From Raillietiella orientalis (Eukaryota), in NCBI GenBank assembly GCA_036172245.1, contig JAYWIR010000033.1, positions 1,364,001 through 1,428,000 on the forward strand: DNA of 64,000 nt, in the 5' to 3' direction. The translations under genes were made by a program, and so were the position numbers. Below, piece by piece: positions 761 to 60,229 of this stretch (position 1 is its first letter; each line of letters starts with the position of its first letter). Under the pieces are notes generated by a model. It saw only the letters and a list, made by a program, of their open reading frames with translations, searched no databases and was not told the origin of the DNA.

Positions 761-3700
761 GCGCGTGGCCACAAGGAACTCACCCACTGCCTCCAGAGCT
801 GTCCTGGAGGCAGTCCTCAGTACTTCCTCTGCCGTCGTTTCCTGCTGTCGGAAAAGCACCTGAAGTCCAGTAGTACCTTTCCTGCTCCCTACCCGGCTTA
901 GCTCCAGATCTGTTCCCTGTATGGGCTCATCATAGGCTTACCAACCTCCCGCTGTTTCCGGGGACCCCCATTTGATCTGGGCTGTCAGTTCCATGTTTTC
1001 TGAAGACTCGGGTGCGTCCTCGGGGACTCTTTCCATGCGGCTCACCTCCCGCGCGTGCCACCGTTCCATCTTGGGTGAGCGACGTCCTCACAAACAGGAA
1101 GTCAGGTCGCGCCACATCGAATCGATTTGCAGTTAGCGGATCGGAGGTGTTCGCTGTTCAGAAGAGGGTGATTCTGACCGCGGTCTTGCCCGAGGCAGGG
1201 CAAGCTGTCCCCTCAGCCCGGCTGTATCCTGTGGATCCGTTTGAAATCGGTTCATTAACCGTTTGGCTGCGTCCGTATCGTGCAGTTGGGAATAAGATTA
1301 TATCTGGGACACTCAGAGTAGCCTTACCTGAGTGACCACTTCGCCTGAATCGGGCATGTGCATTCCATTCTGGTTGTGGGTGGCTGGAGTAGATCTCCCC
1401 TACCAAGACTTTCAAAGGAACTCTCACCTTATCCCCTTTTTTTTTTTTGAGGAGGGGAAGGGGAAGGGACAGAGGGAACGGCTCTTCAGCTGTTTCTTTC
1501 GCGTGACTCTCTTCTTCTCTCTTCCGATGAAGGATTTTCCACGAATCCCATGTGATCTATTAGTTTGCAAGAGAAAATTCCAGCTGGTCCCCCACCATCT
1601 AGGAAACCGACAGTCTCTTGCTGACGCACTTCCTTAACGCCTTGCTGCTACTCCTTTGTTCCTCTATAAGGACCGTCTCTGTTTATCAAAATGACAGGTC
1701 ACGGAGATGTTGCTTCCAATCTCTCGAGTCTACAGACTGAATGTGGACAGCTAGGAGGCTGTTGAAGACGCATGACTGTTTTTTTGTTTTTTGCTTAATC
1801 TCCTTAGCGATTTTCGGCTGTTGCTCTTATACCGAGATACCGGTTACCCCCTGCCGCCACAGATTTTTGGGAGGGAACCGTCAGAAGGCATTTCTGCATG
1901 CCTTTGGAGGCTCTCGGTCTGGTCCGCAGTTCTCAGTGGGGCCGGCCGTATCTGATATCACTAACGAGAAGGAGCACGGAGACGCTGTTGCCTGGCCACC
2001 ACTGCTTCGCGCGCGCCTGGCGGAGTTTTTGCGACGAGATGGCAGCCAGGGAACCGCTCGGACGAACCGAGGTGCAACATCCTTCCACGTCTCGGGGAAC
2101 CGACGAATCACTCCCGCCGGAATAGCTCGAACTGCCACTTCCAAGATCCTCTCCGAAGACGCAATCCTGAGAAAGATCCCACTCTCTTGCTCTCCCAAAA
2201 AATTCTGCCGTCCTCGTTCGCTTATCCTCCTTCCCTACGTTTGTATCCTGCTGCTCGACAGCCTTGCAGCCGAGACCAGGTTTGCGAGCAGGGGTTGTTG
2301 GAACAAGTTCGAGGGGTCGCGCGGGACGGGCCGAACGGTGGGGAGTGAGTTGATCTGGGAGCTCCAAGTCACAGTTCATTTCCTGAGGTCGCTTCTCCCC
2401 ATCATCAACAACAGCAGCAGTAATCTCTTTCCCTTCTTACGCCCTCTCCCTCTTCTCTTCATCACCAGCAACAGCAACAGCCAGTTTCGCCGCCCACCTT
2501 ATCGCATACCCACTAAAACGTTGTTTTTGCCTCTCTCCGGACAAAAAATAATCCAGATCCCTCATCCTGATGCTTCGCTCGTGCAGATGCGTTCCCAGTG
2601 CAGGTACCGCATGCAGACTCTTTCTGTTCTGCTTGTCCGTTCCGCCTCTGCTGATCCCAGAAGTCCCGCTCGCGTGCCCATCCCTCCCAATCGATTCAGT
2701 CGCCAGCTGGCTTCCGGCATGTCTCCCGAGCCGAAAGTGGTGCCGAGAAAACACGGGGAGGACTTCTTCCTCACTCGTCTTCGACGCTCCCCTCTCGGGT
2801 GCAGGCGCAGGCAGGACCTTCGTAGCAGGTTCCTGGCATCCAGCCGGTCGAACCCGGAAGACCGTTTCATCGCGCAAACAACAGTCTGAGCTTCTCGGAG
2901 CGGCCAATTTCTTTTATCCACCTGGAGTTTCTGAGCACCCATCCGCCCCTGCATCTCTCCGAAAATGCCTCCATCCGGTTAGCTGAGCAGCCGCTACGCC
3001 CCTCCCGTCCCGCAGAATCCCTCCTCCCGAGACATTCGTTCCCCTGGCTCGCCGGGAAGGCTTCAGCAGGCAGCGAGCGCATTCGGTATCCTGGGGAGGT
3101 CTCTTGAAGGAGAGCGCCGGCTTAGAGGGGAATTTGGAAGATCGATCCCGGGAAACCTTCAGGAGTCGAGCTCACTCCTTTCTGGATCCTGGCCGCAGTA
3201 CCTGTGGCTGCCGCTCCTCTTCCGGTCGTTCCACATCTCCGCTCCAGAGTCTGCTCCGAGATACCGACGGTGCCTCTGCCTCGCTGGGGGCTTGCAGATA
3301 ACGGTCTTATCTTCCCTCTCGCACTTTCCCTGATGCCTCCTCCCTCCCTACAGTGGGCTGGAGGAGATTGGGAGCAAACTAAGAGCAGAAGGCCATTTTC
3401 TCCTCTTGTGGCGCCGCATTCGCCCACCTCGGGCGACCTGCAATGAATGTTCGAGAGGATGTTGGCGCCAGTGACCTTCGTGGAGGCCTCCCACAAGGAA
3501 CAGTTCTCTCCTCCCCTCCCGTTCTCGCTTCTCCCTTTTTCTCCCTTTCCCCTTCGTCACCATTCCTGCTCTTCCGTTCGCTTCTCCCCGAGGCTGCGAG
3601 GGTGAAGCGAACATCCTCGCCGTTTTCATCTCCCCCCTCCTCTCCCTCTTCCATCTCATCCTTATCATCCTTCTCATCTTCATCGCGCTCATCCTTCCTA

Positions 3701-5699
3701 TCCCTTCCCATCGAGTTGCTTTCCTTCTGCTTTCTTACTCCCATTCGGTCTTTCCGTCCGCCCATGCACGCAGACATCCCGCGCTCCGATTCTCGTCCTA
3801 CTCGGGGAACCACCATCTCTAAGCAACGGTACCCCTTCGGTCTGGTCGCGTTACGTGTCTGGACGCACGCGCGAAAGCCTTCCTCGTCAGAGGGAGTTTC
3901 GAGAGGTGTTCTCGTTGCGCCTTCCTGTACCTTCTACGGGATCGCCCGCGAGGCGCACTCACCAGGGGCATCTCGATGCCCGGAAGAAAGCCGTGACCGA
4001 GTCCCCGTCTCCCGGCAACCCTCATCCACATGCTTTTGGTCTCGCATCCGCTCTTTCTCGCCCCCTAGGAAGCGGAACGTGCGAGATCTGATGACGGTGC
4101 GGTCAGCCAGTGGCAGCCGCCGCAGGCGCCGTCTCCGAGAGGAGCGGGCTGCGACCGCAGACGGCGAAGAAGAGAGGCTGTCCTTCCCTCTCTGGTTTAG
4201 CGTACCGGACGCAGAACTGAGAAGCCCCTGGGTCCTGAGCGGCGCCTTTCCTCCTCCTCTGACAGAGAGCCTTCGGCCCTACCGCGGGACTGAGAAGCGG
4301 CATTACGGGCAGCTGCTACAATCTCCTGAGGCGACGTCTTCGAGAACGTCTTCCTCCGGCGACCCGCTCCAGCGGCAGGGCGCCGCGGCGCATCTTGTCA
4401 GCTTGGAGACTCTTTGCGGGCCCACATGCCGCCGTGGCGCGTGCAGTTGCGCTGGCGGCGACCCCTGCAGCGATGAGGGACTCTCGGGCCCGACAGCGCT
4501 CGCTCTCCTCTCCGAGACAAGGCTGCCAGTGGCAACCGCCTGGAGCTTCGAGCGATCGAGGTTGCCTGTGACCTCAACTCGCCGGAAAGTCTCCTTCTGA
4601 TGCCGGTGAAGGCGGCGGGCTCACGTCTCAAGCGACTTAGGAAATCTCGGGACAGCCCAAGGGCAACGGAGTGGTCAGGGCGATCAGGATCACGGCGGAG
4701 GTTTTCATCTTCGTGTCCCCCCCCCCCTTCTCCTTTTCCATTCTCTTCTTGGGATATCCCGGTGACGAGCGGGCCTTTGAGCTGGAGGACCACTGATCGG
4801 CTCAGACTCTCCCATCCCACCGCGCCTTCCGGAGCGGCGGCTCGGACCAGCGACTCCCGAGCTACCGCTTCTCCCCCTGAAGGACGGTAGAGGTCTACTC
4901 GCGTGCTCCCCCGCCCAATCGCTCCAGCCACCGTCCTCTTCTCGACGTACCACTCTTCTTTGCAACGGACCCCTGCCAGATCCAGGCTTCCCTTTTTTCC
5001 TCCTTCCCCTCTCCATGCAAATCGATCAAACCACTCCAGCGGGCCGAAAGCGGCGCTCGTTGCCATGAGAGTATCTTTCAGCGAGGACTCGGAGCAAGTC
5101 GACCGGGGCCCGCCATCGCTTGCAGCAGCCATAAATCTCGCCCGCAGCCTCCGCTTCCGGACGTGACCGGATGTCTGAGGAAACATCAGCCCCAGCCGTG
5201 GGGCGGGATGCCCGGCGCTTGCCGACTCCTTCCCAAAGGAGAATGTCGGCAAGGAGAGGGGAAAATTCCGAACCCCATCGCTCCTTAAAGCCACTCCCTA
5301 GAAGGGGAAGAGTCCTTGGGCAGTCATTGCGTGGCTGCGAGGGGTGCTTCCTAAGGCGGCAGCCCTGGGGCTACCAACGGCGTCGCACGCCACCGCAACC
5401 GAAAGCCATCCCGGCAATGGAGTGGAAAGACCAACGGGCAGGGTCAATCTGGACACGCTTACCAGTCCGTCCGGAGCCCACAAGGCTTCACTTCTGGCCA
5501 AGGGATAGTAACACCGCTTCCTCTGAACCCCTTGCCTTTTCTTTTCCTGTCTTTCTCGCCGGTCGACCCTCTATTCCTGCTCTCCGTGCCTCCTTGAGGC
5601 ATTTTTCCACCTCAAGGAATCTGCAAGAAAAGTTTGAAGGGTGGTCTTAAAGGGTCTTTCCACCATTAGAGAACAGCGCCGACGACCTCAAGGAATCTC

Positions 5700-5885
5700 T
5701 CAATCGGAGAGAGCTTTCTGTTCCTTCTCTTCCTACCTTCTCCCTTCTCCTCCTCCTATCTTCCTTTTCTCTTCCTCTCTTCTTCCTCTTCATTCTCTTT
5801 TCTATTTCTCCTCCTCCTCCTTTCTACCATACTCCGAGCTTTCCACTCCTTCCCTCGTTCCCCTCTTCCTTACACCTCCTTCGTC
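5700..5885. repeat. CT-rich low-complexity tract (similar tracts at about 3505-3740 and 11810-11900)
   Basis: Long polypyrimidine runs of cctt/ctct/tcc. Confidence 0.8.
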
Positions 5886-6899
5886 CGTCTGTCTCCAGTT
5901 CCTGACTTCCGTTAATTTCTTTGGGTTGCACGAACCTTCCCCTCTCTCCATGGTAGTGATGTGGACAGGAGAACCCAAGGTTCCTCAGTTGAGGAAGGAG
6001 GACGTTCCTCGAGCCTCCGATATTCCAGGGTGCACCACTGGACTTTCAGCAGCTCATTCCCGGTCTTTACTCATCCTCTGGCTGATGATCTGTGTCCTCC
6101 CGCTTCACTCATCTCCTTGGTTTCCTCATCTTGGCGCGCCCCTCCTTCCTTATCCTCTTCTCCCACCTCCGCACCGCTTGCTGCGGGGAGCTGTCGGCAA
6201 GACCACCTGTGGTCCTTCGCACCCGGAAGAGGTCTGACCCGTTGGACGAAGTGGGAGGGGGAGGAAGAGGCTTACCGAAAGCGGAAGGCCAACTCGTCGT
6301 CAGGCAGCTTTCGAGAGGAAAGGACGGAGGAGAGAGAGTCTTTTCTCCCTGAAGCGATTCGAAGGGAATCAAACAGTTCCCTCGTCCCCTGCCTCCTGCG
6401 GCCCATCGCCTGTCGGGTGTTCCCGGAAACTCCTATCGGCTCGGAGACCGAATGTTCTTGCAGATTACTCCTCGGAATCTTGTGGACGGCCTACCGCGGC
6501 GGGCGTCTGGGCAGGTGGAGTTTCGGTGGAGCGTCCTCGACACCCTGCGGGTCTCTTCCTTCCGCGCCCACCTCGGGAGACTTCCCCCACTCGTGTCCCG
6601 GTCCCTGGGCAGCCGATCTCTTCCGAAGGAACGCAAACGGAAGGGGGTGACCATCCTCCGTTCCGCTCTTCCCCTCGCCTTCCCCTCGAGAATCAAGGAG
6701 AGGGAAGGGAGGGGAAGATTGAGATGAAGGTGACGATGATCGGCAGAAGGGCGGTGGTGGTGAGGATGGGGAACCTATAGGATTCTGAGATGCTGCGGAA
6801 CCCTCGCAGAGATCCCGACCCCGGGTTCCCGGATCGATTCGCCTCCCTGTGGACCACCTCTCTGTCCTCCTCCCCTTTGTGCTAAAGAGTTCCTGCCGC

Positions 6900-8965
6900 A
6901 TGCCCCGCTCTGTGTCACGTGAGGGAGGGGAGGGCGCGAGCGGTTGCCATCCACGGGCGAAAAGGAGCGGTGTCGGCTCTGCCCTGCTTGGGCACTCTTA
7001 GCCTTGGTCTCTTGGGTCCTGGAGGGGCCGTCGCTAGGACCACGAGGCGGCATCGCGAGTGAAAAGAGAAACGACGATTCGTTCGCGGCCTTGCCGGTGG
7101 TGCCGCCACTGCAGCGTAAGAGCAATCCCGAGCCCTCCTCCTGCCGGGAAAAGCTTGCTCCGGGAACGCTTCAGACACCCGTTTACAAGGACATCCTTGC
7201 CTTCCCCCTTTCGGAGATGCCAGAGCTTTCTTGAAGCCGATCCTTCCGCCTCGTTCCATTGTGCTGAGCCCGACTCTGAAGAAAAGGCATGGATGGGAGG
7301 GACTGCTTGGATAGGTGGCTTCTCAGGGAAGAACAAGGATTGCACTCAGGGCTTTCCAGCTGACACTCAGACAGTCAAGGGGAGAGACAGGATTTCCATT
7401 TTCGGAACCGTGAGCTGCTTCGCACTTCGGCTGCGTTTCCATGGAGAGCTTCTTGCCAACGATCCGCGTTCCTTCCCAAAATTGGTGGCGGGAAGGAGGA
7501 AGAAAGGGGGGAGGGGCAGGTCAAGACTGGGTCAAGGTGGGTTTCAAGTGACCCCCCTCTTCCATCCCAAGACACGTGCAAGAATGCGGTGTCCGGTTCA
7601 TTCAACATCCCCTGTGCACGAGCGCCTTTCAGTGGTTCCGGAGACCTCGGACCCGAATCCAGGAAGAACTGTCCCCCTCCACTGCCTCAAAAAGGACACT
7701 CTTGCGTGTCCTCGAGGACGAACGATCTCCCTGCGCAAGGAAAGGACAGATCGCTTCCGGTTGCGCCCGAACCCAGTGCTCGTCCCAAGACGCCATTGCT
7801 CCCGACCTCACCCGAGTCTCCCAGACCCGCAGGACACTGGCAGCAGCCGAGTGTGACGAGCGGTTTTCCCGCGGAAACGTCGACTAAGGACGACGACGCT
7901 TCTCCTTGACCTCCCCGTGAGGATGCTCTGCGGAGGTCAGCAGGAGAGGACGAGGATGCACGGGAAGGGAGCGGGAGACATTCGGGAAGGGAGGGATTGT
8001 CTGATGGGAAGAGAGCCTGTCCTGCCTCGTCCACTTCCTCTCGATGTCCCAAGATAGGTTCGCGGTCCCACTTGTTCTGGATGCTCCAGGCGTATCCGCT
8101 GGTCATGACGAGGTCCGAACGCTCTCTGGAGGTCATCAGCGCGAAGGCATCGTTCAAGGCGTCGGACATGGCCCCGAGGGCAGCATGCTCAGCTAGCTGG
8201 AACGCGGGAAGATGGCGTGGAGGTCCCGCTTCGTTGTCCTTGCTGCCGCCTCCCCTCATGGTTGCTACGTGAGCCACGGAAAGCAACCCTTTTTTTTTTC
8301 GCGATCTTCGCTTCGTCTCCCAAAATGCCCTACAGATCACAGCTCCAACTCCACTTGATGGAAAATTCCATTCCTTCCTGCACATTACCCCTGCGACTGC
8401 CCCCTAACGTGATCTGTTATTGCTGCTCCTTCCAGCGTCCGACGCCTCCTCCTCCCGTCCTTGATTCGTGAAGGCGGTCTTGTTGTTCTGGAACACGCTA
8501 CCAAAACACCCCGCAGAACACCGGGCTCACTTTTTCGGGAATTAGGTGCACAAAGAGGCGCTTGGAAATGGAACGTTTCGGGAGGGCGATGACCCGGAAG
8601 GAGCCGCCAGAGCATGATGACCCCAGCTGCGCTGGATTTCACTGCGCGGCAGCTGTGCCCTCCTCCTGTTCCGCATTTGCGCGGTTGCGGAGTACTGGTC
8701 CTCGCTGTCCTTCGGACACGGCACTCCCAGAGCTCCTCCATCGAAGGGAACGTGTGATCCCGCGTTTGGGCATCCTCCCACCACTTCTCTTTTTGTGCGG
8801 CTGCCTTGAGTGCTCTCACGCAAGCGGACAGCATCGAGCGTGGTGGATCGAATGCCGTTCTGGAAGACCGGCTCCGAGAGAAACCCGGAGTCCCAGTCCT
8901 GGGACTTGCTGATCTGGGACCACCAGCTCCCCCGTTTTCGACGCAGCCAGCTATGCGCAGCATTT
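6900..8965 (-). mobile_element. Decayed non-LTR (LINE) reverse transcriptase relic(s)
   Basis: Degenerate motifs in RT order across frameshifts: KAAAQKEKWW, KSSAAG, TRPPS, ALGAMSDALNDAF…SDLV; then SVSWKALSAIL, GGRQGCP, SYAAV. These resemble DSV.W, GVRQGCPLSP and YADD. Judged by eye only. Confidence 0.4.
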
Positions 8966-12306: not shown

Positions 12307-12383
12307 AATAGATGCGAACATTTCTTCAATCCTGGATACTCTACAGAGAGAATACGATAAGCGTGTCCGTCCTAACTATGGAG
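12307..12383 (+). CDS. Rdl: Rdl coding exon (Drosophila exon 2 equivalent): IDANISSILDTLQREYDKRVRPNYG
   Basis: Acceptor tttcag|a (a second possible acceptor, tag|, ends at 12311); donor G|gtaaga. Matches RDL NISAILD..YDKRVRPNYGG. Confidence 0.9.
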
Positions 12384-15078: not shown

Positions 15079-15146
15079 GAACCCCGGTCGATGTTGGAAT
15101 CACCATGCATGTGTTAAGTATCAGTGATTTTTCTGAAGTTCAAATG
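15079..15146 (+). CDS. Rdl: Rdl coding exon 3 equivalent: (G)TPVDVGITMHVLSISDFSEVQM
   Basis: Acceptor ttccttag|, donor |gtaata; 68 bp, phase 1 to 0. Matches PVEVGVTMYVLSISS.SEV.M. Confidence 0.95.
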
Positions 15147-17579: not shown

Positions 17580-17806
17580 GATTTCACTTTGGATTTCTAC
17601 TTTCGTCAATTCTGGAGAGACCCCCGATTAGTATTCGAAGCGAAGCCAGGCGTCGAAAAGCTTTCGGTTGGCTCCGAGTTCATCAAGAGGCTTTGGGTCC
17701 CGGATACCTTCTTTGCCAATGAGAAGAAATCCTACTTCCACACCCACACGACGAACAACGAATTCCTGAGAATCGAGCACAACGGGAACATCGTCCGCAG
17801 CATGAG
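17580..17806 (+). CDS. Rdl: Rdl coding exon 4 equivalent: [12 protein letters not shown]...[11 protein letters not shown]...IVRSM(R) (loops D, A, E)
   Basis: Acceptor atctag|, donor ag|gtgagg; 227 bp, phase 0 to 2. Confidence 0.97.
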
Positions 17807-24132: not shown

Positions 24133-24215
24133 ACTGACAGTGACAGCTGCGTGTCCAATGAATCTTCAGTATTTCCCCATGGACAGTCCACAATGCAACA
24201 TAGAGATAGAAAGCT
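24133..24215 (+). CDS. Rdl: Rdl coding exon 5 equivalent: LTVTAACPMNLQYFPMDSPQCNIEIES (Cys loop)
   Basis: Acceptor tttcctag|, donor |gtgagt; 83 bp, phase 2 to 1. C-x13-C loop. Confidence 0.97.
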
Positions 24216-25609: not shown

Positions 25610-25747
25610 TTGGATACACAATGAAGGACATTCGCTACAAGTGGAACGATGGACCCCGATCCGTGGACGTGTCGACGGAGGTGTCTTTGCCCCAGTTCAA
25701 AGTTATGGGCTACAAGCAGACAACGAAAGTTGTAAACATGACTACAG
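25610..25747 (+). CDS. Rdl: Rdl coding exon 6 equivalent: (F)[45 protein letters not shown]
   Basis: Acceptor ttttctcag|, donor g|gtgagg; 138 bp, phase 1 to 1. Confidence 0.97.
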
Positions 25748-25815: not shown

Positions 25816-26100
25816 GCAACTATTCCCGTCTGGCCTGTGAGATCCAGTTCGTCCGCTCGATGGGGTACTACTTCATCCAGATATACATTCCTTCGTCCTT
25901 GATCGTCATCATATCATGGGTTTCCTTTTGGCTCAACAGGAACGCAAGTCCCGCACGTGTGTCTCTGGGCGTGACCACCGTGCTGACCATGACGACCCTA
26001 ATGTCCTCGACAAATTCGTCTCTTCCTAAAGTCTCGTACATTAAGTCAATTGATATTTACTTAGGCACGTGTTTCGTGATGGTATTTGCCTCTTTATTAG
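25816..26100 (+). CDS. Rdl: Rdl coding exon 7 equivalent: loop C, M1, M2 ([16 protein letters not shown]), most of M3
   Basis: Acceptor ttgcag| after a 68-bp intron, donor g|gtaagc; 285 bp. The PAR motif of anion-selective channels is present. Confidence 0.98.
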
Positions 26101-31989: not shown

Positions 31990-32405
31990 TTGCTGAAGGA
32001 GGGATCTGGAGGAATGGTGTTTTGTGAAGAGAACCCCTAATACCCCTAAGGGACGCTTCTGGATTTGTCTGAAGGGCATTCCCCGAAGGGAGCAGCAAGC
32101 TGCTTGACCCTCTGGAGAGATATCAACTAGCCCCATGGTACGGCTTCATTTTTCACAACCAGAAGGGAAAACCAGACAGCTCCTTGAATTCCTGGAAGGA
32201 CCCAATCCTGCCCGGTCAATGGGGACACGCGGCTTCCACCAGTGCCGTACCCGAAGCCTCAAAGTCAACCAGCGTCATCTTGCTGAGGCGACTCGAAACC
32301 CACTACGCGCCCATTTCTCGGCATCGACCCTTCCATTCGAACACGCAGAGCTTTCGTACTACGCGCGATTGTGCGCCAACCGACACGCCGATTCCACGGT
32401 CGCCA
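31990..32405 (-). mobile_element. SINE copy 6 (5' portion)
   Basis: caaccagcgtcatcttgc, cccatttctcggc and attcgaac are reverse complements of blocks in copy 5 or copy 2. Confidence 0.65.
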
Positions 32406-34539
32406 GAGTCGATGCCGGGTGGATGGACGATGGTCTCAGTGGCAAGATGGGAGCGGGCGCGGTACAAGAAAAGGCGGAAGAGGTGGGTGTACTCCAGGGG
32501 TGACCTTGGATCTCATCCAAGGTGATCCGTAAAGTGGATGAGCGCAAGTCCCATGGGAAACGGGGAAGGAGGTGCATCCCAAGTGGATGAGAAATGAGGA
32601 TGGCTCGCGTGCACCGGGATGCGCGGGAAAGAGACCGTCCGGACGATTCCTGGAAACGGAGGACTGCGTCGGCTGACGGCGAAACGGTGGTGGCACACGG
32701 CATGGTTTTCCTTCTGTCCCCCGGAGAAGAAGACTGGGACGTTCGAAATTCGCTTCTGTAATCACGATGGGAATCGTTCGCGAATGAGGTGGCCTTCGAC
32801 GCGAGCAGAAGCTGCGGAGGTTCGAGGAGGGAGAGAGGAAACGACACAGTTCCATCGCTATTCCAATCTTCCTCGACTCCAGTCGTCCAGGTCGCCTGCG
32901 GTCCCAGGCGACCCAGTAAACCGCGCAAAATGGGAAAAATGATTTGGGGTTCCAGGAAGAGATCTCTCGGGTGGGGGGATCCGATGGATTCTCGAGCGAC
33001 GGAGGTCCCACACTTGGTGATTGGATGCTTGTCTGGCCCGCGAGCCAAGCACCCGACGCATGGCTGCAAGTCTCCCGTGAAGCTTGTTGCCTGACAACGG
33101 AATGTCAAATGCGGCGCCAGTGACTCGATTCCTGACGCCATCGCAATGTTAAAGAGCCCCGAGGGTGTTCACGAAACTGCCAGAAGAAAAGAGAATCAAG
33201 GAGTAACGCTTGGTGACGGAACTTCCGCCGAGTAGGCAATTTTCCTGGCTCCTTGCTCTTAGACATCTCTTCCCTTTCCCTTCTTCCACTCCTCCTTCTT
33301 GAAAGCTCGTCAGGATGGAAGGTGCCTCAGCTGACGTCGCTGGACACCCGGAAAAGACTTCCTCCCCTGGGGGGACGAAAAATCGATCCGATTCGGCCGC
33401 ATTCCTCCGTTCATTCTTTTGATCCCTGGGAATGTAGCTGCGGTTGGCGCAGTTTCCCGACCCTGAGCTCCGCCATGGAGTTTCTGGAGCACCGAGGAAA
33501 CTGCGTAAAAGCGCATCCCCCTGCAGCAGCAAGGGGATCGGCCAGGAGAGATCGCCGGACGGCGGGTGCGCCAGAGCAGGCTCAACGTGGAAGAAGACCA
33601 GCGAAGAGAGCAGATTCCACCCGGGTTTGTGCCAGAACTGGGAAAATGGCTTCACGGCTGAAACTGGCGCCACGCTGCACCGTGAAGAACGAAGGAGAGG
33701 AATGTGCGCGAGGAGCTACTGAGAGAACGCCAATTCTCACACGGGATTCGGTGAGACTGGAAAAAAGAAACGCGGGAAATCTTTGGATTCCCTTCTTTTT
33801 TCTTGCTCCTGATGTTCAGCCTCCACATCTTGTTCAAGCATCTTTGGGGGAAAAATGCAAAAAAAAAACCTGGGAACCTGGTTAACGCGTTTTTTCCTGG
33901 AGGTGCATCACCATGCCAACCACTTCGAGAGTGCAGGCGAGCAGGCACGTGCGACGAGGAAGGGTTGCAGGGGAGCGAAAGAATGCTCCTTCTTCAGTGG
34001 CTCTGGAATCTGGGTTAGGAGGAAGGAGAAGAGGAGGCGCGCGCGCGCACAATTCGACTGCCTCCCTTCCTTCCCACCGCCGTCCTCGGAATCAGCTCCT
34101 GGGAAGCGCAGCGGTAAACAGTCGGAAAAGGGTTGCGGAAACGGGAGAGGGACGGATGCTTGCTGCTGCGGATGTGCACCGACGCCTACCGCGCAGCATC
34201 GTTGCCAGGAGCTTCTGAGCACGCGTGGTCTGGCACCGACAGTCAGCCATCTTTGCTGGCTCGTCGGCTGAGAGCTCTTCTCTTTCGCCGATGGACCGCC
34301 GGTAGGCGCCTCTGCGACACCCGACCGGAAATTTCCCTTTCTTGCTGTGTGAAGAGCGCACTCTGTTCGAAAAAACGCGGGCCCGCCGCCCTCTTCAGGG
34401 CGATGCCGATTTCACCCCCACCACGTCCATTCCGTTCCGGGAAATAAATTAAAAAAAAAAAAAAAAAAATCGAGACAAAGCAGAAGCCTCGCGAGGACGT
34501 CAACCAAATAAAAGAAAGAATGTTCCTCTGGCTTTCCAG

Positions 34540-35141
34540 AATACGCGGCCATGGGATACATCGCCAAGCGCATCCAGATGCGCAAGAACCGCGCCCTCAA
34601 CCTCCAGAAGCAGCTGGAGAGCAAGCTGCGCATGGAGCAGGCTCAGAAAGCGAGGGAGAGGAAGATGGAGGGCAGCCGACCGTCGGATCTGCTAAGCCAC
34701 TGCGCCGACGCAGGCTGCAGGTTACAGGACTACCAGACGAAACAGATGGACGAGAACATTTGCTCCTTGAAATACAGCTTCCGCCCCATCGATCACGGGA
34801 CAAGACCTTTCGAACCCTTGTTTCAGGCCTCCGAAAGAAGGTCCTCTCCCCAGAGCGACTTTGGAGACTACTCGCTATCGAAGAGCGCGCTCGATTACGG
34901 AACTGCAGCTTACGGAACTGCAGCTTACGGAACCGCTCACATGTCCAAGCGCAAGGGAAGGACCTCGAACTGCACTCCGAGGTACCTGCCGGGGAGGTTC
35001 CCGAATGCCAGATCCTCTCCGGAACAAGAAATGCTTTCTACCACCTGCTCGGCAAGGGTGCCAGACCAGAGGGACAACTTCTACGAGTTCTCCATCTCCT
35101 CTCCATCTTCCACGGCGTTTGGATATCAGTTCCGCAACCTG
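34540..35141 (+). CDS. Rdl: Rdl coding exon 8: end of M3 (EYAAMGYIAKRIQMRKNR) and a long intracellular loop
   Basis: Acceptor ctttccag|, phase 1. The 5' part matches EYATVGYMAKRIQMRK. The 3' end is assigned to the strong donor ctg|gtaagc, whose phase 0 matches the last exon; this boundary is less certain. Confidence 0.85.
34896..34937 (+). repeat. In-frame 15-bp tandem repeat (YGTAA, about 3 units) in the Rdl M3-M4 loop
   Basis: tacggaactgcagct twice, then tacggaaccgct. Confidence 0.95.
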
Positions 35142-35749
35142 GTAAGCCCAGGGTGCATCCACCGTCTTCCTCCTCCTTTGCAGAGAAATCTGGGGGACGC
35201 GCGCATTTGGCAAGTGATGGGGAAGGGACAGACCCTCTTTCGAAGAAGACCTTTTTACTGCTCCTCTCCTCCCTCCCCCGTTGTCTTCATCCTCACTTCG
35301 TCTCGCGTCTCACGTCATCTTCACCAGAGCCTATTGCGCGTTGCCTCTGTGCCTCGGCCGTCGTCGAATTGCTTGCATCCACTCGCTCCTGTAGCATTGT
35401 TTTCCTCGGAAACAAGAGCGCCTTTCTTCCATTCTTTCTCTAGAGCCTCAAACTCACAAAGTAGCCTCGGGCTATGGAATGAGCACATGTCTCTCCTCCC
35501 CCCCCCCTTCTTCCCTCTCTCTGGAACCAGTGTGATGCTCGTTTTTCACTGAGATGAACCACTGGCTCCTGCTTGCCTTCCTGGAAGGTGTGACTTCCGT
35601 CGCCATCGCCCCTAATCCATGGCGGAAGAAAGGTCTGCAGACCCTATTAAGGTCCTGCTAACCCCGTGAAACGAGCAAATAAAAGCTTTCAGCCGAAAGC
35701 TGCCCCTCTCGTGGACGTTCCGGCGTTTGCCCAGCCAACAGGAAGCTGC

Positions 35750-37000
35750 GGCGAAAGAGATGTCCGTTAGAGGTTTCGCGGGGTCACTCGGGGACTGCCT
35801 CCCGTCTGCACGGTCTGAGCTGCTTGCTTCTCATCCGGGCGCGTTGGTCCTATGCCAACTTGACCGACGTTCGCAACGACTCCGAGAGGAAGATCAGAAA
35901 CAGCTTCCCGGAGCTCACTGGGAAGACCGCGCTGGACATCTGCAAGCTCGCGATGGGGGAAGGGAACGAGTAACCCGGTGCAGACGTCGATGTCCGTGGT
36001 GGCGGGGTAGGGGAGGTGGGAGGAAGAAGGCCGAGTATCAAAAGAGAAGCTTTGAAACCTTCTGCAGATCCTACCCGGCTTCCTAGCCGACCAAGGAACG
36101 TCGGAGAGGGGCACCACTTCGAGAGCCGAGTCCCTGAGAAGAAGGGAAGGCCATCTACGGGAAGGAGGACGATAATAGGCACAAACGCCACCAACAGGAC
36201 CAAACACGAGGACTATCTCCCTTTCTCAGTACCAGTGGATCCCGGAATGGAGCTCACTGTGTTCCCAAAGGAAGGACTCCGTCGGGGAGTTCCGGCTGCA
36301 GCTTCCCCGGGTTCGCTCCGATTTCCCGTGGTTCGAACTTCCTCTGCCTTTCTCGCTTCCTTGAGATCTAGAAGGTGTGGGAACTCCCGAACGCTGCGAG
36401 TCCATGGGAGCGTGGTCTTCGGGTGGACAGAACTTCTTTCCCATCCTCCTGCGGGGGAAGAGGAAATCTGCAGGGAAGAAATTTCCAGTATGATTCTTCT
36501 GAATGGAAAGAGCAGGCATCCCCTTGTTAGCCCCGCGAGATGGTTTCGGTCTGCTTTGAGGCTCCTGGTGCGGATGCCCACCAGAGGCGGGTCGACTCTT
36601 TCGGCTGCCGCGGCAGCGGGGCAGCAAGAGGTCCTTCCGCGAGGTTCAGTTTCCCGACGGAGCCTCTTCATTGGATGAACAAATCGGGGATGCGTCTTCG
36701 AGGACGCTAGCGGGAGCGAGCCGTCGGCATAAGCGAAACCCATCCCGAGGAACCACGCCCACGCACTCCTGGAAGGCGCGTTTCTCTTGCCTCGCGCTTC
36801 TCGGAGCGCCCTGCTCCGGACCTCGTCGCCGGAGCGGGGCGCTCCGGAACGGCAGCCTCCGGTTCCTCCACGAGAACGCAGCCTCCTCCGCTTCCGGCCG
36901 GGAAATCGGAAGGGATTCCTGGCCGAGCGTGCGCGCGCGCTCGCGCCGGCAGGACCGACGAGCCTGAGAAAAAGGAGAAGGGGGGCGCGGGAACCAGCAG
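35750..37000 (+). mobile_element. Possible decayed LINE ORF2 relic
   Basis: CPWW…KRSFETFC, ASPGS and SPERGAPE occur in the order of the LINE tether, RT domain 0 and GVPQGS. Weak. Confidence 0.3.
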
Positions 37001-37694
37001 GGACGGCAACAGATGCCCCTGATCTCCTGGATTGCATCCGCCATCTCGTGGGGCGATCGGTCCCGCTTGGGATGGCAGAGGTGTCGCTTGGCTGAATGAA
37101 ACTCGGGTGGGGCAGATGGATTCCGCGAGCGGCTGCTGCGAGGTGACGCGGCTGGGAGGAGCGGAATCGACCGGCGGCACGAGTGCAGCCATTTCAAGGA
37201 CGGGAGCGTCGAAGCCACCGGCTCCATTCTAAGATGGAGAGTCGGAAGCGGCGAACGATCCCTCGCCTCTGCCCCCCTAGTCCGAACCCGTCGCGGGCTT
37301 CCACCCCATTCACTGAGATTCCCTCCCCGTTAAAGATTTCGGGACGCGCAGGATGCTGGAGAGGGTGGGAGAAAGCTGATGCTGGCTCTCTCGTTAGCTC
37401 CGCCCATTATGCAGCTCTCCGCCGCCGAAGGATCTCAAGGGGGTTAAGCTAGAGCACCGGAGAGTCAGGCGGAGATGGTTGTGAGGTGAGGCGAGGAGAA
37501 GGAAACCTCGATTCTCTAGATACAACAATGGGATAAAAGTCGGGCGGGATGAGTGCCCCGCATCTCATGGAATGGGAGCATCACCGCGCAGAGGACTGCG
37601 AGCGTCTTTCTCCTGGAATGGATGGGGAACGAGACGACGGGATGTCACAAAACATCACTTGGCTAACTGGACATTCTCAAGCATCCCCCCAAAG

Positions 37695-37790
37695 CATCAT
37701 CATCATCACGATGATCACGATGATGGCGATGACGATCGCGATGACGATGAAGGTGGTGATGATGATTACGACGACGACGACGATGATGAT
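37695..37790. repeat. Imperfect (CAT)/(GAT/GAC)n trinucleotide microsatellite
   Basis: catcatcatcatcacgatgat…gacgacgacgatgatgat. Confidence 0.85.
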
Positions 37791-38879
37791 ACGAAGTGCT
37801 AATACGAGTACAGCAATGGAGTGAAATAGGTGATTGCGAATTGCAAGAACGCCGCAGATAGGTTCGTGGGGACCAAAGTTTTGGGATTTAAGAACCCCTC
37901 GATTTCCCGCGAGGAGGCATCCTTTCCGCAGGTTCCTCGATCCTGAAAGAAAGAGAAAAGAGCGTCCACGAGCTGAAATGTGTGCTCACTTGCATAAAGC
38001 AAGGGGGAGTGCAGGAAGGCTTGGGGATGGAAATCGCGACGGCGATTCGTGGGGCCGGCGTGGCGAAAGAGGGACTCCCCGGCTGAGCCAGCTTGAGAAG
38101 GTCCAGCCAGCAAAGCGGTGGGAAGAGGCAATCCCATTAGCGTTCTTGCGTAAAACAGGACGCGCCCTACCAGACCGCTTGGAGCGCCTTTCTGGGGAGT
38201 TGCAATTGTGCCGCTTTGCCGAAGTTTCGTACTTGAGGTCACCGTCGCTATGCATACCCGACTTCATGGTGGTGGGCGTGCGTTCTTCAAGGACTCTTTG
38301 CATGGTGACTGTTTTTCCGGGGTCACTCTTGCCTCGCGAAGATCGGAGGCACTGCCAGGAGCAGGCGTTCAGGCTTTCCAGCCACCTTTGCGACGTAAAC
38401 CGTGAATCTCGGTGGATGGGATTGGCTTCTCTTCATTCTCCTGAGTTTACTGCTTGCATGCTTCTCTTCATCCTGAGCACTTTCTGCACTTACGCTGGGA
38501 TCAAAGCTTGAGTGGGATTATGAAAAGGAATGAAGGATTCTTGACAGCTTCAGCTACTTTCTCGGCACCTCCGGCTTCCCGTTGCCGTTCTCAAAGTCGC
38601 TCTCTTCCTGCCCTCTACGCGATTATGGCTTGTTGCCTTTCAGCTCTTTGGGTGCTGTGTTGATGTTTAAGAGACTCTCGTTCCGAGTTACCGTTTTCTG
38701 ACTGGACCCTTAGATCTCTTGCGCACCTAAAGACCCACTAATGAGGCTTCTTACCCAAACGCGAATTTCGTTTTGGTATTCTTGGAGTTCGGCACGGGCG
38801 ATCCCAAATCCCAATTCCACTTTCTTCCTGCTCCAGGCAACGGTTTTAGCATTTATGATGGAAAAACTCCCGAGCTGAA

Positions 38880-40905: not shown

Positions 40906-41199
40906 GATATGCCCTCCAGAGAAATACCTATCTCTCCTAGGTACGCTGCAGACAATCCCCTTGGAAACAGAGGAATGAGAAACGTTGACTCGTGTAAATC
41001 AGAGACTCCTGATTCTTCTTCTTTGCCTCCCAAGGAGAATCTGGACAAGTTCTATGGCCTGACCTCTTCCGACATCGACAAATACTCCCGAGTCATGTTC
41101 CCTGTGTTTTTCGTGTGCTTTAACCTCATGTACTGGATAATCTACCTCCACGTTAGCGACGTCGTCGCTGACGACCTTGTTTTGCTCAAGAAGAACTGA
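40906..41199 (+). CDS. Rdl: Rdl terminal coding exon: end of loop, M4, stop (…[43 protein letters not shown])
   Basis: Acceptor cttttcag|, phase 0; TGA at 41197-41199. The C-terminus is almost identical to insect RDL. Confidence 0.93.
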
Positions 41200-45714: not shown

Positions 45715-46200
45715 GAAATCACAGCGCCCTTCTTCAGCCCGCCTCCGGTGAAGAAGCGTCGCAGCAAGTCCAAAGCAGTGTTCTGAGGTTGTTGGAGAAC
45801 TGAAGGGAGTCTCCACCACAAGTCCTCGAGGGCACCGAAGTCCAACAGGAGTTGCGGGAGCGACTCTATCGCCCCGCACCTCGAACAGTTTGGAGGGGCA
45901 ACTACCCCGGAAACCAGGTGCCGGCTCACATAGCACCGGAATCCCCAGTACAGAAACAGCATAGCATCCTGTTTACGAGATAGCGGGAACACGGAGGTGT
46001 CCGCACACAGGGAAGGGACCACAAGTTCTTCGGGAGCATGCCAAGCAGTTCACTCCACCCACTCCACTCCCACTCTTTGCCAGGCAGGAAATGAGGAGCG
46101 GCAGCATTCACCAACTCCCTCCTCGTCTTCCAGCCGTCAAGGAACTTCTCGACTCCTGCAATTTTGCAGGAGAAGGAATCGTGGTATGCTATCACACTTC
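45715..46200 (-). mobile_element. Decayed non-LTR (I/R1-group-like) ORF2 C-terminus
   Basis: LSRKQDAML…(frameshift) FCTGD…SRHLVSG…PNCSRCGAIESLPQLLL…LLRRFFTGGGL resembles RLRTGH…CCHC finger…FL..TGL. Confidence 0.5.
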
Positions 46201-49200
46201 CGTTTCTTTCTTCAACAGCTGCGGAATATCATTAAGTCAATAGCTGAATCAGTGTAACTCTGAGTCCTGCATTTTTATTCTCATATGCTCACGAGCTCAT
46301 TCCAGTAGCCAACTAGCAGTAGACGAAAACCAACACTGTCTGATTCCACGATTCAGATCTGATCTGATTCCAGGGAATGGAACTCTTTGATACTGACGGT
46401 TGAAGGCTTCCAATATCTGAGACGTGATGCTTCCTTGCAGTTCGGATGAATTAGGAATTTTGTTTGTGGGTTCCTCATTTGAATGTGCTTCGGAATTAAT
46501 TCGATTATTCTTCAGCGGGCATTAGAAATTAGACGTGCTCAGAATGTTTTACTTTCATCCCTAACATAATGCAACATGAATAATCTTTCACATTTGGTAA
46601 TTAAGTGCAAATAAAAACAAAGTGATGGATATTCCGATGCCAACTGGGTGAAGACAGAGATAACTCTGAGGTCTCGAAACATTCTCATTGCAGAATTGAT
46701 TCCAAAAAACAATCGTGAACTCAACCGCTCTCAAAAAGAGGGAAAGGCACTCTATTTACCCTCCAACCACTGAAAGCTCTCTACGATGTGGTTTTTTTTT
46801 GTTTCAGCAGCTTGCTTGGAATGAGCGATTGCAGCCATAGTGCCATAGCAATCTTTTTTGAAGTGAATTAGGAAAATCTCATTTAGGTAAATCAGAACCG
46901 AGGACTGAAGGCTTCAACGGAATGCCGTTCATCAATTCATTTCAATGCTGAAACTTCCAATATCCTTGAATGACGTTTATTATGGAGACAATATTATGCC
47001 TATGGTGGAAATTTCATCCCACATCCGCGTGAACTGAACGTATCTTGGACAGCTATGAAGGAACTTTTGTTCCAGCGGGCCGCGTGTCTTAAGAAATGTG
47101 TTACGGACATGAACTAAACTCAGTGAATACCAGCTTCTTAAACGTGAAATTTATAATAGCCGATTATTAATTAATTTATTTTCCTATCTTGCACGGATGC
47201 CTTCTAATTTCGCCGGCTAAACCATGAGGTTAGTCAACTTACTCTAATTACTCTACCGCACTGAAAGTGCGGGCTCCAACGAAACGAATAAAACAGAAAA
47301 AAAATTCTTTTTCTCACAACCACATCCACAATACCGTAATCAGAGAGGAAGAAAAAGATCAGCGCCCTGAAGCAGCTTTTAGCAATCAGGTGTTCCTCAT
47401 TTGCATCAAGCTTGCGAATAGATTTCAAGAAAATGGGTATTCAAAAGGAAAGTATAAAGAAATCTCGAGGACTGCACACAAAAAAAATCTCCAGGCCTCA
47501 CGTGAGCAGGAGTCACATGTACACCATGGCTGTTTCAGAACATGCAATTACGGGAATACAGATGTTTTCAGGAAAGGTGCCTGGACAAACGTCCCCTGAA
47601 GTGAAAAATAGCTTGGTTGATTTGTTGCCATACCCCCGTTCTGCTCTTGCTTTCTTTAGTTACTTCCGGACTTTTTATCTCAGCCTGATAATGTACATCA
47701 TTAAGGTATACTGATAACAAGAGTATCAGTGTGTAAGAGTATTAAATCCTGTTTTTGTGTTCCCTTTGCATTTTTCACTTGTGGCATCCAAGATTGCCGT
47801 TTATTGCCGTGGACCATGGTATTGTGAGCAAAGGTTGCTTTTTTCCGGAAGACTGGATCCTGTTGCTCGATCTGGTGGCTTCCCGATCAGTTCTTTAAAG
47901 CAGTGAAAGGTTTGAAATGTGGTCTGTTTGGTCGGCTTTTTTCTTGCTATTATCACCAAATTCACTATTACGACTCATCTGGAAAACACGCATTTTCGCT
48001 TGCATCTGAATTTTCCTACTCTTTGTTCCACTCTGGCAGTTACAGATGCCTGGAAGCAACGATCCATCTTACACTTTCGCACATTAGTGAATAAATCTCA
48101 GATTGTCATGGATCGGCATTACTTTCTCAATTTTTCATTAATTTATTTTTGGAAGTACAGGTCAGTACGGTTGTTTTCCCCTAAGGAAGCATCTAGGAGT
48201 TCAAAATCAGACTGAATATTTGTATCCTTATAGTTCCTTTGGATGAGTTTTGTGGAAACCACGATTCTAAAAGTGAAAGTTCGAAATCGCATTTTTGATC
48301 TCCATGAACTTGCAAGTTTTTTTAAAAAAATCTTTAATTCTTCTACCGATTGCAACCTACTTTCCAAAAGTATTAGAACATTTGTGATTCTCCTTCATTG
48401 ATTCGAATCTAGAAAACTCGCGAAACGCTTTGTGTTCTATCGTGAGAAATAAATTTTTCATAGTCTGGTTTTATCAGATTCATGTAGCGTTAATTATTTT
48501 CTATCATGCTGTTCACATATTTTAAATCTAGCGCGCTTCGCTATCATTTTTATCACTTCATGTCCACTTCGTTAGGTATTTTCCGTTCACATTATGTGAA
48601 TAGTGAAGCAAGCAAGCGAAACCGGACACAAATTCCGTTGTTTTGAAGACTCCATGCCTTGAATACTCTGGAAGAGCCACATTTTTGTAGTTTTCTACAG
48701 AAGTTACATAGCAGTTTTCTATGTGCTTATGTTTACTCAGGGAGCTTCTTTTTAAGAGTTTTCCGCAACTCTGACGAAAGTCGTGGAATTTTTGTTTCAC
48801 ACACAACTTTATGCTTTCTATTTGTCTGATGACCATGAACTGATGGTCAGGTGGCCACAATCTCTAGCTGGTTAACGTGCATTTTCCTAGGGTGATGATA
48901 AGTTTGGGGATGGTGGTGTCTTTCATCAGATCATGGATTCTTGCATAAATTCGTGTATCATTTGAAGTAATTTTTCTTAATTCATCAGTAATAAACTTTC
49001 GTGCTGCTTTCCACATTGATTATATTCTTCTCAATGTAATGTACCCGCATAAGAAACTTCTAATGTTCGGAAGTCTTCCATTCTTAGATGAGATTAGCCT
49101 CCAAAATGTCATCAGACCATCGGCATTTTTCTTCACGTAACTCTGTAGCTTATGTGAAGTAGGATCTGCCACCTAATGAAAGGATCGTGGTTGAATCATT

Positions 49201-52200
49201 TTTTTTCAATTTTTTTAAATATTTTAAGCTGCTGTCACCCGTGACTTGGCGATGATGCCAACAGATCACGATGCGCCGCTTTTATCCGACGGGAATCGAT
49301 TACTGGGGGTCAATTCGAAAGGCTTGGTTTCGAATTCCTATCCCAACCATGGTAATATGCACATGTAAAACCACATGTAAAGATAAAAATATTGTGATCA
49401 CATAATGTGACACCAAATATTTTCCAATGTAAAGTTTCGTTCATAGTAACCCACATCCATACAGAGTTCCCGAGTATACAAACATTATGCAAAGTGTATT
49501 ATTCCTCCAAAACCATATACAAAGCCGTATCCAATTAATTGCATTGAGTCCGTTTATATGTTCACAATAAAGCTTGAACCAAATTAGTACATTTGCAATT
49601 TATCTTCATGAATGTGTTCAATCTTGTTCCCCCAGAATGGCATCTTCATTTCTGTCGCAGTGATTTCATTTATTTTGAGCTCCGTAAGTGAAATTTATTC
49701 AATTTATAAACATAATATTTAGTTATGTAAACCGACTGGGGAAGCGGCATTCAAATGATTTAATATCCTTTTGTGTAATTTGTTGTACAGGATTATAATT
49801 TAAAGTTATTTGTAATGTCACAATTGGTTCAGTTTTTAGCCAATCCATTTTTGATTAAGTTTTTGTAAAGATGAATATCTGTGTTTGGTGCTGATTTTTC
49901 TTAGCATCTGCATTCATACAACTTCCCGGTAAATGATTCGTAATTTCATTATCCTTATAATAAAAGAACTATCCAACTACTTATGCCTGAATTATCACAT
50001 GAAAATGCGTTTTTTTTTATTTTTTGCCTTCGAAATTCTCTCAAGAGGATGTGTGCAATAGTTCGTTGATTACCGTCTATTAGGTTTTTTATTACATTAA
50101 TATTTAAAGAGTGGGATTCCATGCCTAATGAGTTGACTTTAGTATTTACTATCAATAGTATCATACTGGAAAAGGCAAATTCTGCAGTGAAGTTTCCATT
50201 GAATTCAAAATTCCCAACAATTGTACAGATGCATGGTATAATTTTCCGATTTTGTTCAGTGAAAACAAAGTAACCGAAAATTTCCTAGGTGTAATAAACT
50301 GTGCGCGATGAGCACTGAGAATTTCTCCAAAATTTCAAGGTGCTTTAGTGGATTGCTGTTTATATGGCAACTCATAATATAGAAATTAGCGGTTTTTTAT
50401 TTTCTATATATTTCTAAATTCGTGTTTCCAAAGGAATGATGAATCTGTGCTCATCAATAAAGTATTGGCTGTGTTAAGTATATTTTAGTCAGTGTGCTAA
50501 CACCAGCAACACATCAGTAATCATGTGTTAAGGAGATCTTTTGTTTAGTGAATTTCTCACGTAAATAATGGTCCGCAAATTGCAAGTGTGCAAGCAGCTT
50601 TTATGCCCTTATCTAGAATCTGAAGAACTTGAGTAATCCATTGCTTGCTGAGCAGTTTTTATGAATTTTTTTCATCCTGTGTGAATACTCATTGTGAGTG
50701 AGAGACTTATTTTGTAGTCATTGAATAAGCTTCAGCCTTCTAAAAGGTTGTCCACTATTGATCTGTTTGTCTTTCTTCACAATTCTCATCAGGGATGCTA
50801 ACATAATAATAACCAAGTCAGTAATTCAGAATATCTGGAGTATGCTTATAAAATGTGTACTTTTATTTGAGATATCAGGTCAAGTTTTGTTTAAATGAAT
50901 TGGTGCTTATGTTTACTCAGCCATAACATGAGGAAACCAAAACTTCAATGGCTAAGGTGTGCAAATTCCAGTTTTATGACCTTTGAGTGAAGTAACTTTT
51001 TGTGGAAAAATGTTGTTATAATTGGTAATTGAATATAATTTTATTCAACTATGACAACAATGGTGGGATAATGATAGGTATTTTCATAATCTAATGTGGT
51101 TTTTATTGTGCAGCAGTAATACTGCTGAGCAAAATGAAGTCTTACTTAATGATAAGTCTTACTTAATATAAACAAATGTTCAATAATTTCTTATTACCAA
51201 TTCTGTTTATATCCTGCATGCTTGTATTTTATTGTTTTACTTGAAAGAATGGAAATGCATACAAAGTTTGCATGTAGTAACATGATTCAAATTTACAGAG
51301 TTACAAAATAATACCCAATTTCTTGCTACACTCCTGAAGTATACTAGAAGCCATATGGGGGCATGAAAGTGTCCTGCTGAAAATTGCATGGAAGATTGAA
51401 CGTGTTAGCTAAAGTAATTCTTTCAGATCACATTTGCACATATGATTTGTTGTAGCAGTTTTAGTAAAACTTCGAATTTGTGCTTATCCGTTTTGAAAAT
51501 ACGATGGCATTAAGCAGTATTTATGTAAAATGCTTTATGAGAATAATGATTTCTGTTCCAAAAATAATGAATTTTCTTTTAAACTTGCCTTGGTATCTTT
51601 TATTTTCCACACCTTAGCATCTTTGTACCCAGTGCTAATTTGATTAAGTAGAAAGAGTTGTGCATTATTTTCCTTCTTTTTTTTTTTTTTTTCTTTTTTT
51701 TTTTTTTCTGAGAAGAAGTTAGAAGTTCTTGAAAACATAGCATTGAAGTTAGTTCATTTCATACTAATATTAGCTTCGTATCCATTAGCAAATAGCATTT
51801 AATTCCATATTTTTCCTAAAAGTATACTTGAACTATCCACATAACTGACTATTTAGTATTCAAAGCCATGATGTGCATGATTTGACAAGCTGGTATTGAG
51901 TAATGTCTGTTAAAAACAAATAGTACTGAATAACAGCATTGGTTTGTCAGTATGAAATTTTTTCATATGAATTGTTTTTGTTTCAGTGTTTAATCACAAC
52001 AGGATGTATTCTGAAACTTTTCCCTTATTTTTCAAAATTTAGTAAGCTATTTTCTCGTTTACTTCTGTGTTCATAAAAAGATATATCTTTGACTTACCTC
52101 CATTTGCCTATCTCCTCTGAATTTGTTTAGGATCTTGAACAGTTTCAAGCCATCCAAGATTTGATTAAAACATGTATGGTCCTAACTAATACATGTGCTA

Positions 52201-55054: not shown

Positions 55055-55085
<31 letters not shown>

Positions 55086-55672
55086 CCCGCTCGAAATTGT
55101 GTTTGCTGTGAACGCCTGGTCCGAAAGCCCCGTGATGCTGTTGGTCGTCTGCGTCTTAAGAGTAGACGAATTTGGGGAAGCCGAAGTGGAAATCAATAGT
55201 GTCAGTCGGTGACTGTAAGCACACTCCGCTCCTTTTGTCTCTGAAGTTGTCCCCCAAGGGTTCCTCTCTCCTTTTGCTGTTGTTTGTTTCTTCCACAGTT
55301 TCCTTTACTCGAAGGCATCCAAGAACGAATCAGTAGCTGGAGATGGGTTTCAAGGCAGCAGATGATGATGGCGTGGGTGATCACGCTCTCCTCAAATGCA
55401 TCCGAACTCTTCGTCAGGATCGATTCCCTCGTGCTTTTTCACGTATGCGAGAGAAATCCTTGCGGTGAACGGAGTCACACTCTTGCGTGCAGGCATTTAA
55501 AGAAAAAGCGTTTGGCGGGAAAAGCGCGACGATTAGTAGGAGAAATGCAAATTCCCTTAGCGAATGACGGCGCACAGCACACACTTCAAACAGCCCTCTT
55601 TGCAAAGGAAAAAAAAAAAAAAAAGTTTTATCAGGTGTCTCCTATCTTATCAGCATTTATTCTTTTCTTTTC

Positions 55673-55707
<35 letters not shown>

Positions 55708-58465: not shown

Positions 58466-58651
58466 ATGGAGGCAGCGGAGGAAAACAGCATCACTATGGA
58501 TTGTTCGGAAAAGAGAATTCCGGAAGTAACCAACATTGCTGAAGTTCTCTCAAAGGACATGAACACAAAGCTTAAATTTATCATTCTCATCGATTTAATA
58601 GAAAAGAATCAGATTAGCAATCGTGATGTAGTGGGTGCTGTCCAGCATTTG
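58466..58651 (+). CDS. Neurobeachin/LRBA-family (rugose-like) first coding exon: MEAAEEN…KLKFIILIDLIEKNQISNRDVVGAVQHL
   Basis: Resembles the NBEA N-terminus MKFAVLIGLI..GEVSNRDIVETVLNL. In-frame stop upstream at 58436-58438; donor ttg|gtgagc, phase 0. Confidence 0.85.
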
Positions 58652-60124: not shown

Positions 60125-60229
60125 CTGGTTGGAAGAGATTATGATTTGGAATCTCACTTCGTGATCCAAGATAGGAAGAATGTTTTGCATATGCTGGAGC
60201 TGATAGATCATTGCCCCACCCCCTTACAG
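60125..60229 (+). CDS. Neurobeachin-like coding exon 2: LVGRDYDLESHFVIQDRKNVLHMLELIDHCPTPLQ
   Basis: Acceptor tttcag|, donor cag|gtgact; 105 bp. Matches LVGGEFDLEMNFIIQD…M.ELL.HC…Q. Confidence 0.9.

Follow-up and report, generated by a model that had tools for sequence, protein, structure and literature searches.

Is a serine at the M2 2' position of an Rdl gene the mark of recent insecticide selection, or has it long been the normal residue of the gene that carries it? The question is raised by the window, a stretch of 64,000 nucleotides of genomic DNA, in which the M2 stretch reads CCC GCA CGT GTG TCT CTG GGC GTG ACC ACC (25950-25979). Its fifth codon, TCT for Ser, occupies the 2' position (equivalent to Drosophila 301/302). 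The initial annotation had called this Ser at Rdl M2 2' under an 'A301S resistance' title and had offered two options, a selected allele or, as the preferred one, a natural paralogue. The residue call was correct, as TCT at 25962-25964 lies inside an intact Rdl-type gene. We mapped eight exons of this gene, which form a 590-codon open frame with a single terminal stop and with AG/GT at every internal exon junction:

12307..12383, forward strand: first exon mapped, with the N-terminal helix, YDKRVRPNYG
15079..15146, forward strand: equivalent of insect exon 3, of which the search of the window gave no second copy
17580..17806, forward strand: exon with binding loops D and A
24133..24215, forward strand: Cys-loop exon, with loop E, the Cys loop and the start of loop B
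25610..25747, forward strand: equivalent of insect exon 6, with loops B and F and the start of C; a 68-base intron comes next
25816..26100, forward strand: exon with the end of loop C, M1, M2 and M3; 285 bases, AG..GT
25962..25964, forward strand: 2' codon TCT, Ser in the exon translation
34540..35141, forward strand: exon in which the M3-M4 loop starts, EYAAMGY...; the T350 position is Ala
40906..41199, forward strand: final exon, with M4 and the TGA stop

The 3' end of the 34540..35141 exon was placed at the first in-frame GTAAG donor and is predicted from sequence. The M3-M4 loop in this exon is unusually long (about 200 residues), is unrelated to the canonical Rdl loop and contains a short YGTAA-like repeated motif. 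A scan upstream of 12307 gave no candidate for the signal-peptide exon (exon 1). Insect Rdl genes have mutually exclusive exons 3a/b and 6c/d; here, when the window was searched with each exon by tblastn, only the exon itself was matched, revealing no alternative exon 3 or exon 6. On either side of the gene, 89 open frames were scanned against Pfam (20 on the upstream side, each at least 150 amino acids long, and 69 on the downstream side, each at least 75); nothing exceeded the curated cut-off, so there was no neighbouring gene usable for synteny or for identifying the taxon. Past the 3' end of the gene (46000-64000), GC content is 31-45%, lower than the roughly 56-60% of 2000-8000 and 32000-38000.

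The top single-domain database matches of the gene were Rdl proteins. Its M1-M3 exon was identical to the best solved-structure match, 9she_A, at 85 of 94 residues (E 5.9e-52), with a bit score of 176.6 compared with 117.5 for the next family. M2 of 9she_A reads PARVALGVTT, i.e. with Ala at 2', and beyond the 2' serine the 25816-26100 exon differs from it at eight more residues. Together with 2'S, this exon carries G279S and V332I, the latter equivalent to Anopheles V327I.

The initial annotation had suggested a genome search for other Rdl copies and a tree to place them. The M1-M3 exon was searched against the animal's own assembly, which has 491 contigs and 210 Mb. Of the 12 matches obtained from 13 candidates, three are Rdl-type: the window gene, C13:299787 (96%) and C33:1261469 (82%), the last lying on the same strand as the window gene and 128 kb upstream of it. 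The same three loci were returned by a shorter M1-M2 query and by an extracellular exon query. After them, the next genome match was 57% identical, and from its motifs we take it to be GluCl-like. The 2' codon is TCT (Ser) in the window gene, TAC (Tyr) in the C13 copy and TCC (Ser) in the upstream copy; Ala at 2' is absent from all three Rdl copies of the assembly. The seven exons compared are common to the three, with identical intron phases and AG/GT borders, and the M4 exon is present in both paralogues too. All three copies keep the anion-selective PAR motif, T6', L9' and G335, and are identical to Nilaparvata P0105 at Y109, R111, F146, S176, E204, F206, Y254 and R256, which, in both list and numbering, we take to be the GABA-binding residues of Rdl. 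Judged from its sequence, the window gene is intact and codes for an Rdl-type subunit of a GABA-gated chloride channel. That the 2' states are fixed we infer from the one haploid assembly, and an Ala allele may still segregate in the population.

The three codons bear directly on whether the serine is real. A base-calling or assembly error, with a true G at 25962, is scarcely credible because both paralogues start the same codon with T (TCC and TAC), and the 590-codon frame, which has no other defect, argues against it as well. Two further observations concern the wider gene family. The third Rdl copy, with 2'Ser TCC (C33:1246730-1263260), is much more compact than the others, and it alone keeps the M3-M4 loop motif in its canonical form (EVRYRVNDPKAHSKGG). 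Among the 11-12 chloride-channel matches genome-wide, none was clearly an M1-M2 exon of LCCH3 or GRD type; by motif, the matches other than Rdl presumably comprise a GluCl-like subunit, a pHCl-like subunit and several divergent ones. This apparent absence may reflect loss, or a search miss resulting from short exons.

How old the three copies are was estimated from pairwise divergence over 351 aligned codons, with the variable loop left out. Amino-acid identity was 85% between the window gene and the C13 copy (pS 0.73, pN 0.09), 77% between the window gene and the upstream copy (pS 0.80, pN 0.14) and 76% between the C13 and upstream copies (pS 0.69, pN 0.15). Silent sites are at or near saturation (pS 0.69-0.80), so the duplications are ancient, and the much lower pN (0.09-0.15) places all copies under purifying selection. 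In the main tree (22 rows and 312 columns, built without the 2' column and without two nematode rows), the window gene and the C13 copy were sisters with support of 100/98, and 11 columns, one of them at the alignment edge, were unique to this pair. The three copies grouped together at 83/91, which is not strong, and the upstream copy stood apart from the other two in an exon tree of 93 columns; for these reasons Ser was possibly gained twice. By the 312-column tree, the Rdl genes of this animal are fast-evolving throughout.

Over the 312 core columns the window gene is 76-79% identical to insect Rdl, whereas Nilaparvata is 94-100% identical to five other insects over the same core. The broad divergence elsewhere in the protein, which the initial annotation had taken to favour a paralogue, was thereby borne out. 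The best named matches reach just 76-80% over the core, and the age of Ser is therefore bounded by paralogue divergence only. Orthology with lepidopteran Rdl2 was tried separately, and a clade uniting the window gene and the 2'Ser protein of Plutella was rejected (p-AU 2.3e-11).

Mitochondrial sequence indicates what kind of animal this is. Among the best 120 of 8000 scored, the best COX1 matches were three pentastomid proteins (72-73%), followed by insects (68-71%). In a 20-row COX1 tree the animal formed a long branch outside both the 16 non-pentastomid rows, 15 of which are named insects, and the Armillifer + Linguatula clade, and the diagnostic COX1 columns divided 17 vs 19 between pentastomids and the rest. 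COX1 thus shows hardly anything beyond a non-insect origin, the animal's placement below Pancrustacea being weak. The mitochondrial order is cox1-trnL2-insert-cox2-trnD-atp8-atp6-cox3-tRNAs-nad3-trnR-trnK-nad5, in which trnL2 was read by eye and trnK was called by ARAGORN on the opposite strand. A trnL2 between cox1 and cox2 marks Pancrustacea, and according to published gene orders trnK lies beside trnR in Argulus, a pentastomid and a cephalocarid (PMC1590035, PMC10999652) as well as in a podocopid ostracod (PMC4698455). On these sequences the animal is a non-insect pancrustacean, probably one of the Oligostraca. The insert between cox1 and cox2 is a non-coding stretch of approximately 500 bases with a partial second trnL2 (L030/L035; C282, C285), and the tRNAs E, N, F, A and S1 have been relocated in front of nad3. 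Genome-wide, 54 COX1-like matches were spread over many contigs, most of them with stops or in pieces; these matches are abundant nuclear copies of mitochondrial DNA, with three clusters on the contig that also holds the window (C33:100-138 kb).

An A301S-type allele that this population had recently acquired under selection from cyclodienes or fipronil would have both residue and position in its favour, as these are the ones of the classic resistance allele. The A301S, A302S and A296S alleles of Drosophila, Anopheles and other pests also share with the window gene the V327I-equivalent Ile and a position 345/350 that is not Thr; however, they are recent polymorphisms in conserved single-copy genes, whereas here Ser is common to deeply diverged paralogues (PMC5704519, PMC5664438). 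That TCT lies one base from the Ala codon GCT had also been put forward, and is true yet uninformative, because any TCN serine codon is one base off a GCN alanine codon. With a second paralogue also carrying Ser at near-saturated silent divergence, and the third having a T-starting codon, a recent allele would need independent recent sweeps in old copies. A non-insect animal further counts against an insecticide allele, as does the diverged background seen in the eight other differences from 9she_A within the same exon. We consider such an allele very unlikely, and neither the resistance title nor the selected-allele option is supported for a non-insect animal with no Ala copy in its assembly.

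Ser at 2' is most likely an old paralogue state rather than a selected A301S allele, because this non-insect animal has three ancient copies, of which a second has Ser and none has Ala. The natural-paralogue origin that the initial annotation preferred is in this respect supported. We therefore have considerable confidence that the serine is the long-standing state of one of three old Rdl paralogues in a non-insect pancrustacean, with a presumably weaker pore block. For resistance monitoring, a sequence-only 'A301S' call would wrongly signal insecticide selection here.

If the serine is indeed an old paralogue state, it would have been at 2' before or at the duplications, and two copies would have kept it, while the C13 copy would have changed from Ser (TCC) to Tyr (TAC) by a single base, an order suggested by parsimony only. 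Reversion from Tyr to Ser in the window gene is a possible alternative order, and two independent gains of Ser could be an alternative history. Most likely, tuning of pore and gating among the paralogues would have given blocker insensitivity as a by-product, and any such insensitivity would predate synthetic insecticides.

Naturally 2'-substituted Rdl paralogues are already known from moths, aphids, ladybirds and Varroa, and the window gene adds to them. As described for insects, Rdl2 and Rdl3 of moths, aphids, scale insects, leafhoppers and ladybirds have a fixed S, N, Q or P at 2', and the window gene resembles them in being an old duplicate with a fixed non-Ala residue; it also has G279S in common with the leafhopper and ladybird copies (PMC10482695). 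Unlike them, it belongs to a non-insect and is not orthologous to the Plutella copy, and the third state here is Tyr. Varroa RDL1 and aphid RDL2 are likewise natural 2'Ser paralogues in multi-copy families, the former being a non-insect example; Varroa RDL1 has Met at 6' where the window gene has Thr, and Varroa and aphids have retained Ala-bearing copies whereas this genome has none (PMC9146934).

Surveys of the 2' residue give the same picture more broadly. Among 166 Rdl-type M2 segments from the database, which include redundant isoforms and from which the search pattern excluded Tigriopus-type segments, 131 have A, 30 S, 3 N, 1 P, 1 Q and 0 Y, and Ser also occurs in database records close to the window exon. 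In metagenomes, we examined the best 80 of 233 confirmed loci, 67 of which passed a 66% identity filter; these have A in 24 cases, G in 22, S in 9, Q in 7, M in 3 and Y in 2 (A 15, G 14, S 9, Q 6, Y 2 and M 1 among the 47 distinct segments). The Met loci (3) and Gln loci fall among L073-L075 and L076-L079. Both copies of the millipede Chamberlinius (P0065, P0076) have Ser at 2' and G279S, like the window gene; tick P0006-P0008 and P0013 have Ser at 2', and the copepod Tigriopus (P0125) has Gly. Millipede, tick and copepod Rdl stand on separate branches from the window gene in the 312-column tree. Ser is thus nothing unusual outside insects; Tyr is rare, though not confined to the C13 copy.

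These surveys also bear on a further explanation, in which Ser (and Tyr in the C13 copy) would have been selected long ago by natural channel blockers in diet, host or habitat. Ancient selection of this kind has been proposed for terpenoid-feeding insects, and three copies, all changed at 2' and with the Ala copy lost, match what is described for scale insects and ladybirds (PMC10482695). Companion residues point the same way: G279S, V332I and a non-Thr residue at 350 lie at sites that change along with 2' in insect Rdl that is resistant or duplicated (PMC5704519, PMC11122182), and the sites equivalent to 279, 332 and 350 are linked to 296S in mosquitoes (PMC5704519). G279S, Ile 332 and Ala 350 are, however, no evidence of toxin selection, because they are also found with Ala elsewhere (Ile at 332 in 3 of 9 distinct Ala segments); the genes are, moreover, fast-evolving throughout. 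The widespread presence of non-Ala residues at 2' in unrelated non-insect records needs no special toxin, and for this reason pore and gating tuning is favoured over toxin-driven selection, which we consider unlikely. A three-copy, Ala-free Rdl family outside insects would be a counter-case for the terpenoid-coevolution model.

What the serine would do to the channel can be predicted from related proteins. Picrotoxin, cyclodienes and phenylpyrazoles act at a site made up of the 2', 6' and 9' rings (Guo et al. 2023, PMC10482695). In the window gene's product, the 2' ring would form the pore's cytoplasmic end, to which picrotoxin, cyclodienes and fipronil bind, and Ser would narrow and polarise it. 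In channels with Ser subunits, block by picrotoxin and dieldrin would be weaker and block by fipronil somewhat weaker; such channels would still be GABA-gated and anion-selective. In published models 2'Ser shrinks the pore from 2.8 to 2.3 A, and Drosophila S/S knock-in flies survive picrotoxin better (PMC10482695). Aphid RDL2, with 2'Ser, has a fipronil IC50 of 0.72 uM compared with 0.18 uM for RDL1, and Varroa RDL1, which combines Ser at 2' with Met at 6', is nearly insensitive to fipronil and picrotoxin (PMC9146934). By analogy, we would expect a clear loss of picrotoxin and dieldrin block with a modest fipronil shift, because Ser at 2' comes with Thr at 6'. Replacement of G335 by Met confers meta-diamide and isoxazoline resistance (PMC11122182); as G335 is kept, sensitivity to both classes would be retained. 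In the single functional study of a crustacean receptor that the literature search gave, fipronil acts on salmon-louse GABA1 with an IC50 of 165 nM (PMC5664438). The 2' states are S, S and Y in this animal, and G, M, Q and S occur in other non-insect records. In ecotoxicology, the 2' residue of crustacean Rdl would be a testable predictor of fipronil and cyclodiene sensitivity among non-target crustaceans.

The S/S/Y set in a crustacean, above all the Tyr subunit, is more unusual than the serine of the window gene. The C13 copy, sister paralogue of the window gene, is intact and constrained, and TAC at C13:299928-299930 gives Tyr at M2 2' (PARVYLGVTT). Two metagenome loci with 2'Tyr, L087 and L104, read PARVYLGITT and form a branch of their own (100/97), apart from C13, in the 93-column exon tree; a single clade forced on the three Tyr sequences was not rejected over these 93 columns (p-AU 0.28). 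Because C13 pairs with the window gene at 100/98, Tyr would have originated independently, and it apparently arose at least twice. In both metagenome loci, the 5' residue is Ile and the M2-M3 loop has a basic residue. A strict DNA pattern for the 2'Tyr stretch, which would miss PARVYLGITT loci, gave 0 matches in metagenome contigs. We found no report of 2'Tyr in Rdl in a literature search with thin coverage of subscription journals and supplements, which is weak evidence of novelty, and the words 'tyrosine' and 'crustacea' are absent from the main text of PMC10482695.

In published models, Gln and Asn at 2' bring the pore below 1 A, and Asn was homozygous lethal (PMC10482695). As Tyr is bulkier still than these two residues, a Tyr homopentamer may conduct poorly, and the Tyr subunit may work in mixed pentamers. 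Spider-mite Rdl copies carry His at 2', so a large side chain here would not be without precedent. It is possible, though doubtful, that Ala-type Rdl has been lost altogether and that GABA chloride channels of this crustacean lineage are built solely from 2'Ser and 2'Tyr subunits. If so, Tyr would place an aromatic ring in the picrotoxin/fipronil site, probably in mixed pentamers with Ser subunits, and the animal would be naturally refractory to pore-blocking insecticides. Extreme 2' diversification would then be general in non-insect arthropods and no signature of plant-insect coevolution. For channel biology, a natural 2'Tyr would test the side-chain size tolerated at the cytoplasmic gate and rescue in mixed pentamers. 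Apart from its 2' residue, the C13 copy differs in loop C, where the conserved Asn that precedes Y254 is replaced by Val, and it also carries T336A.
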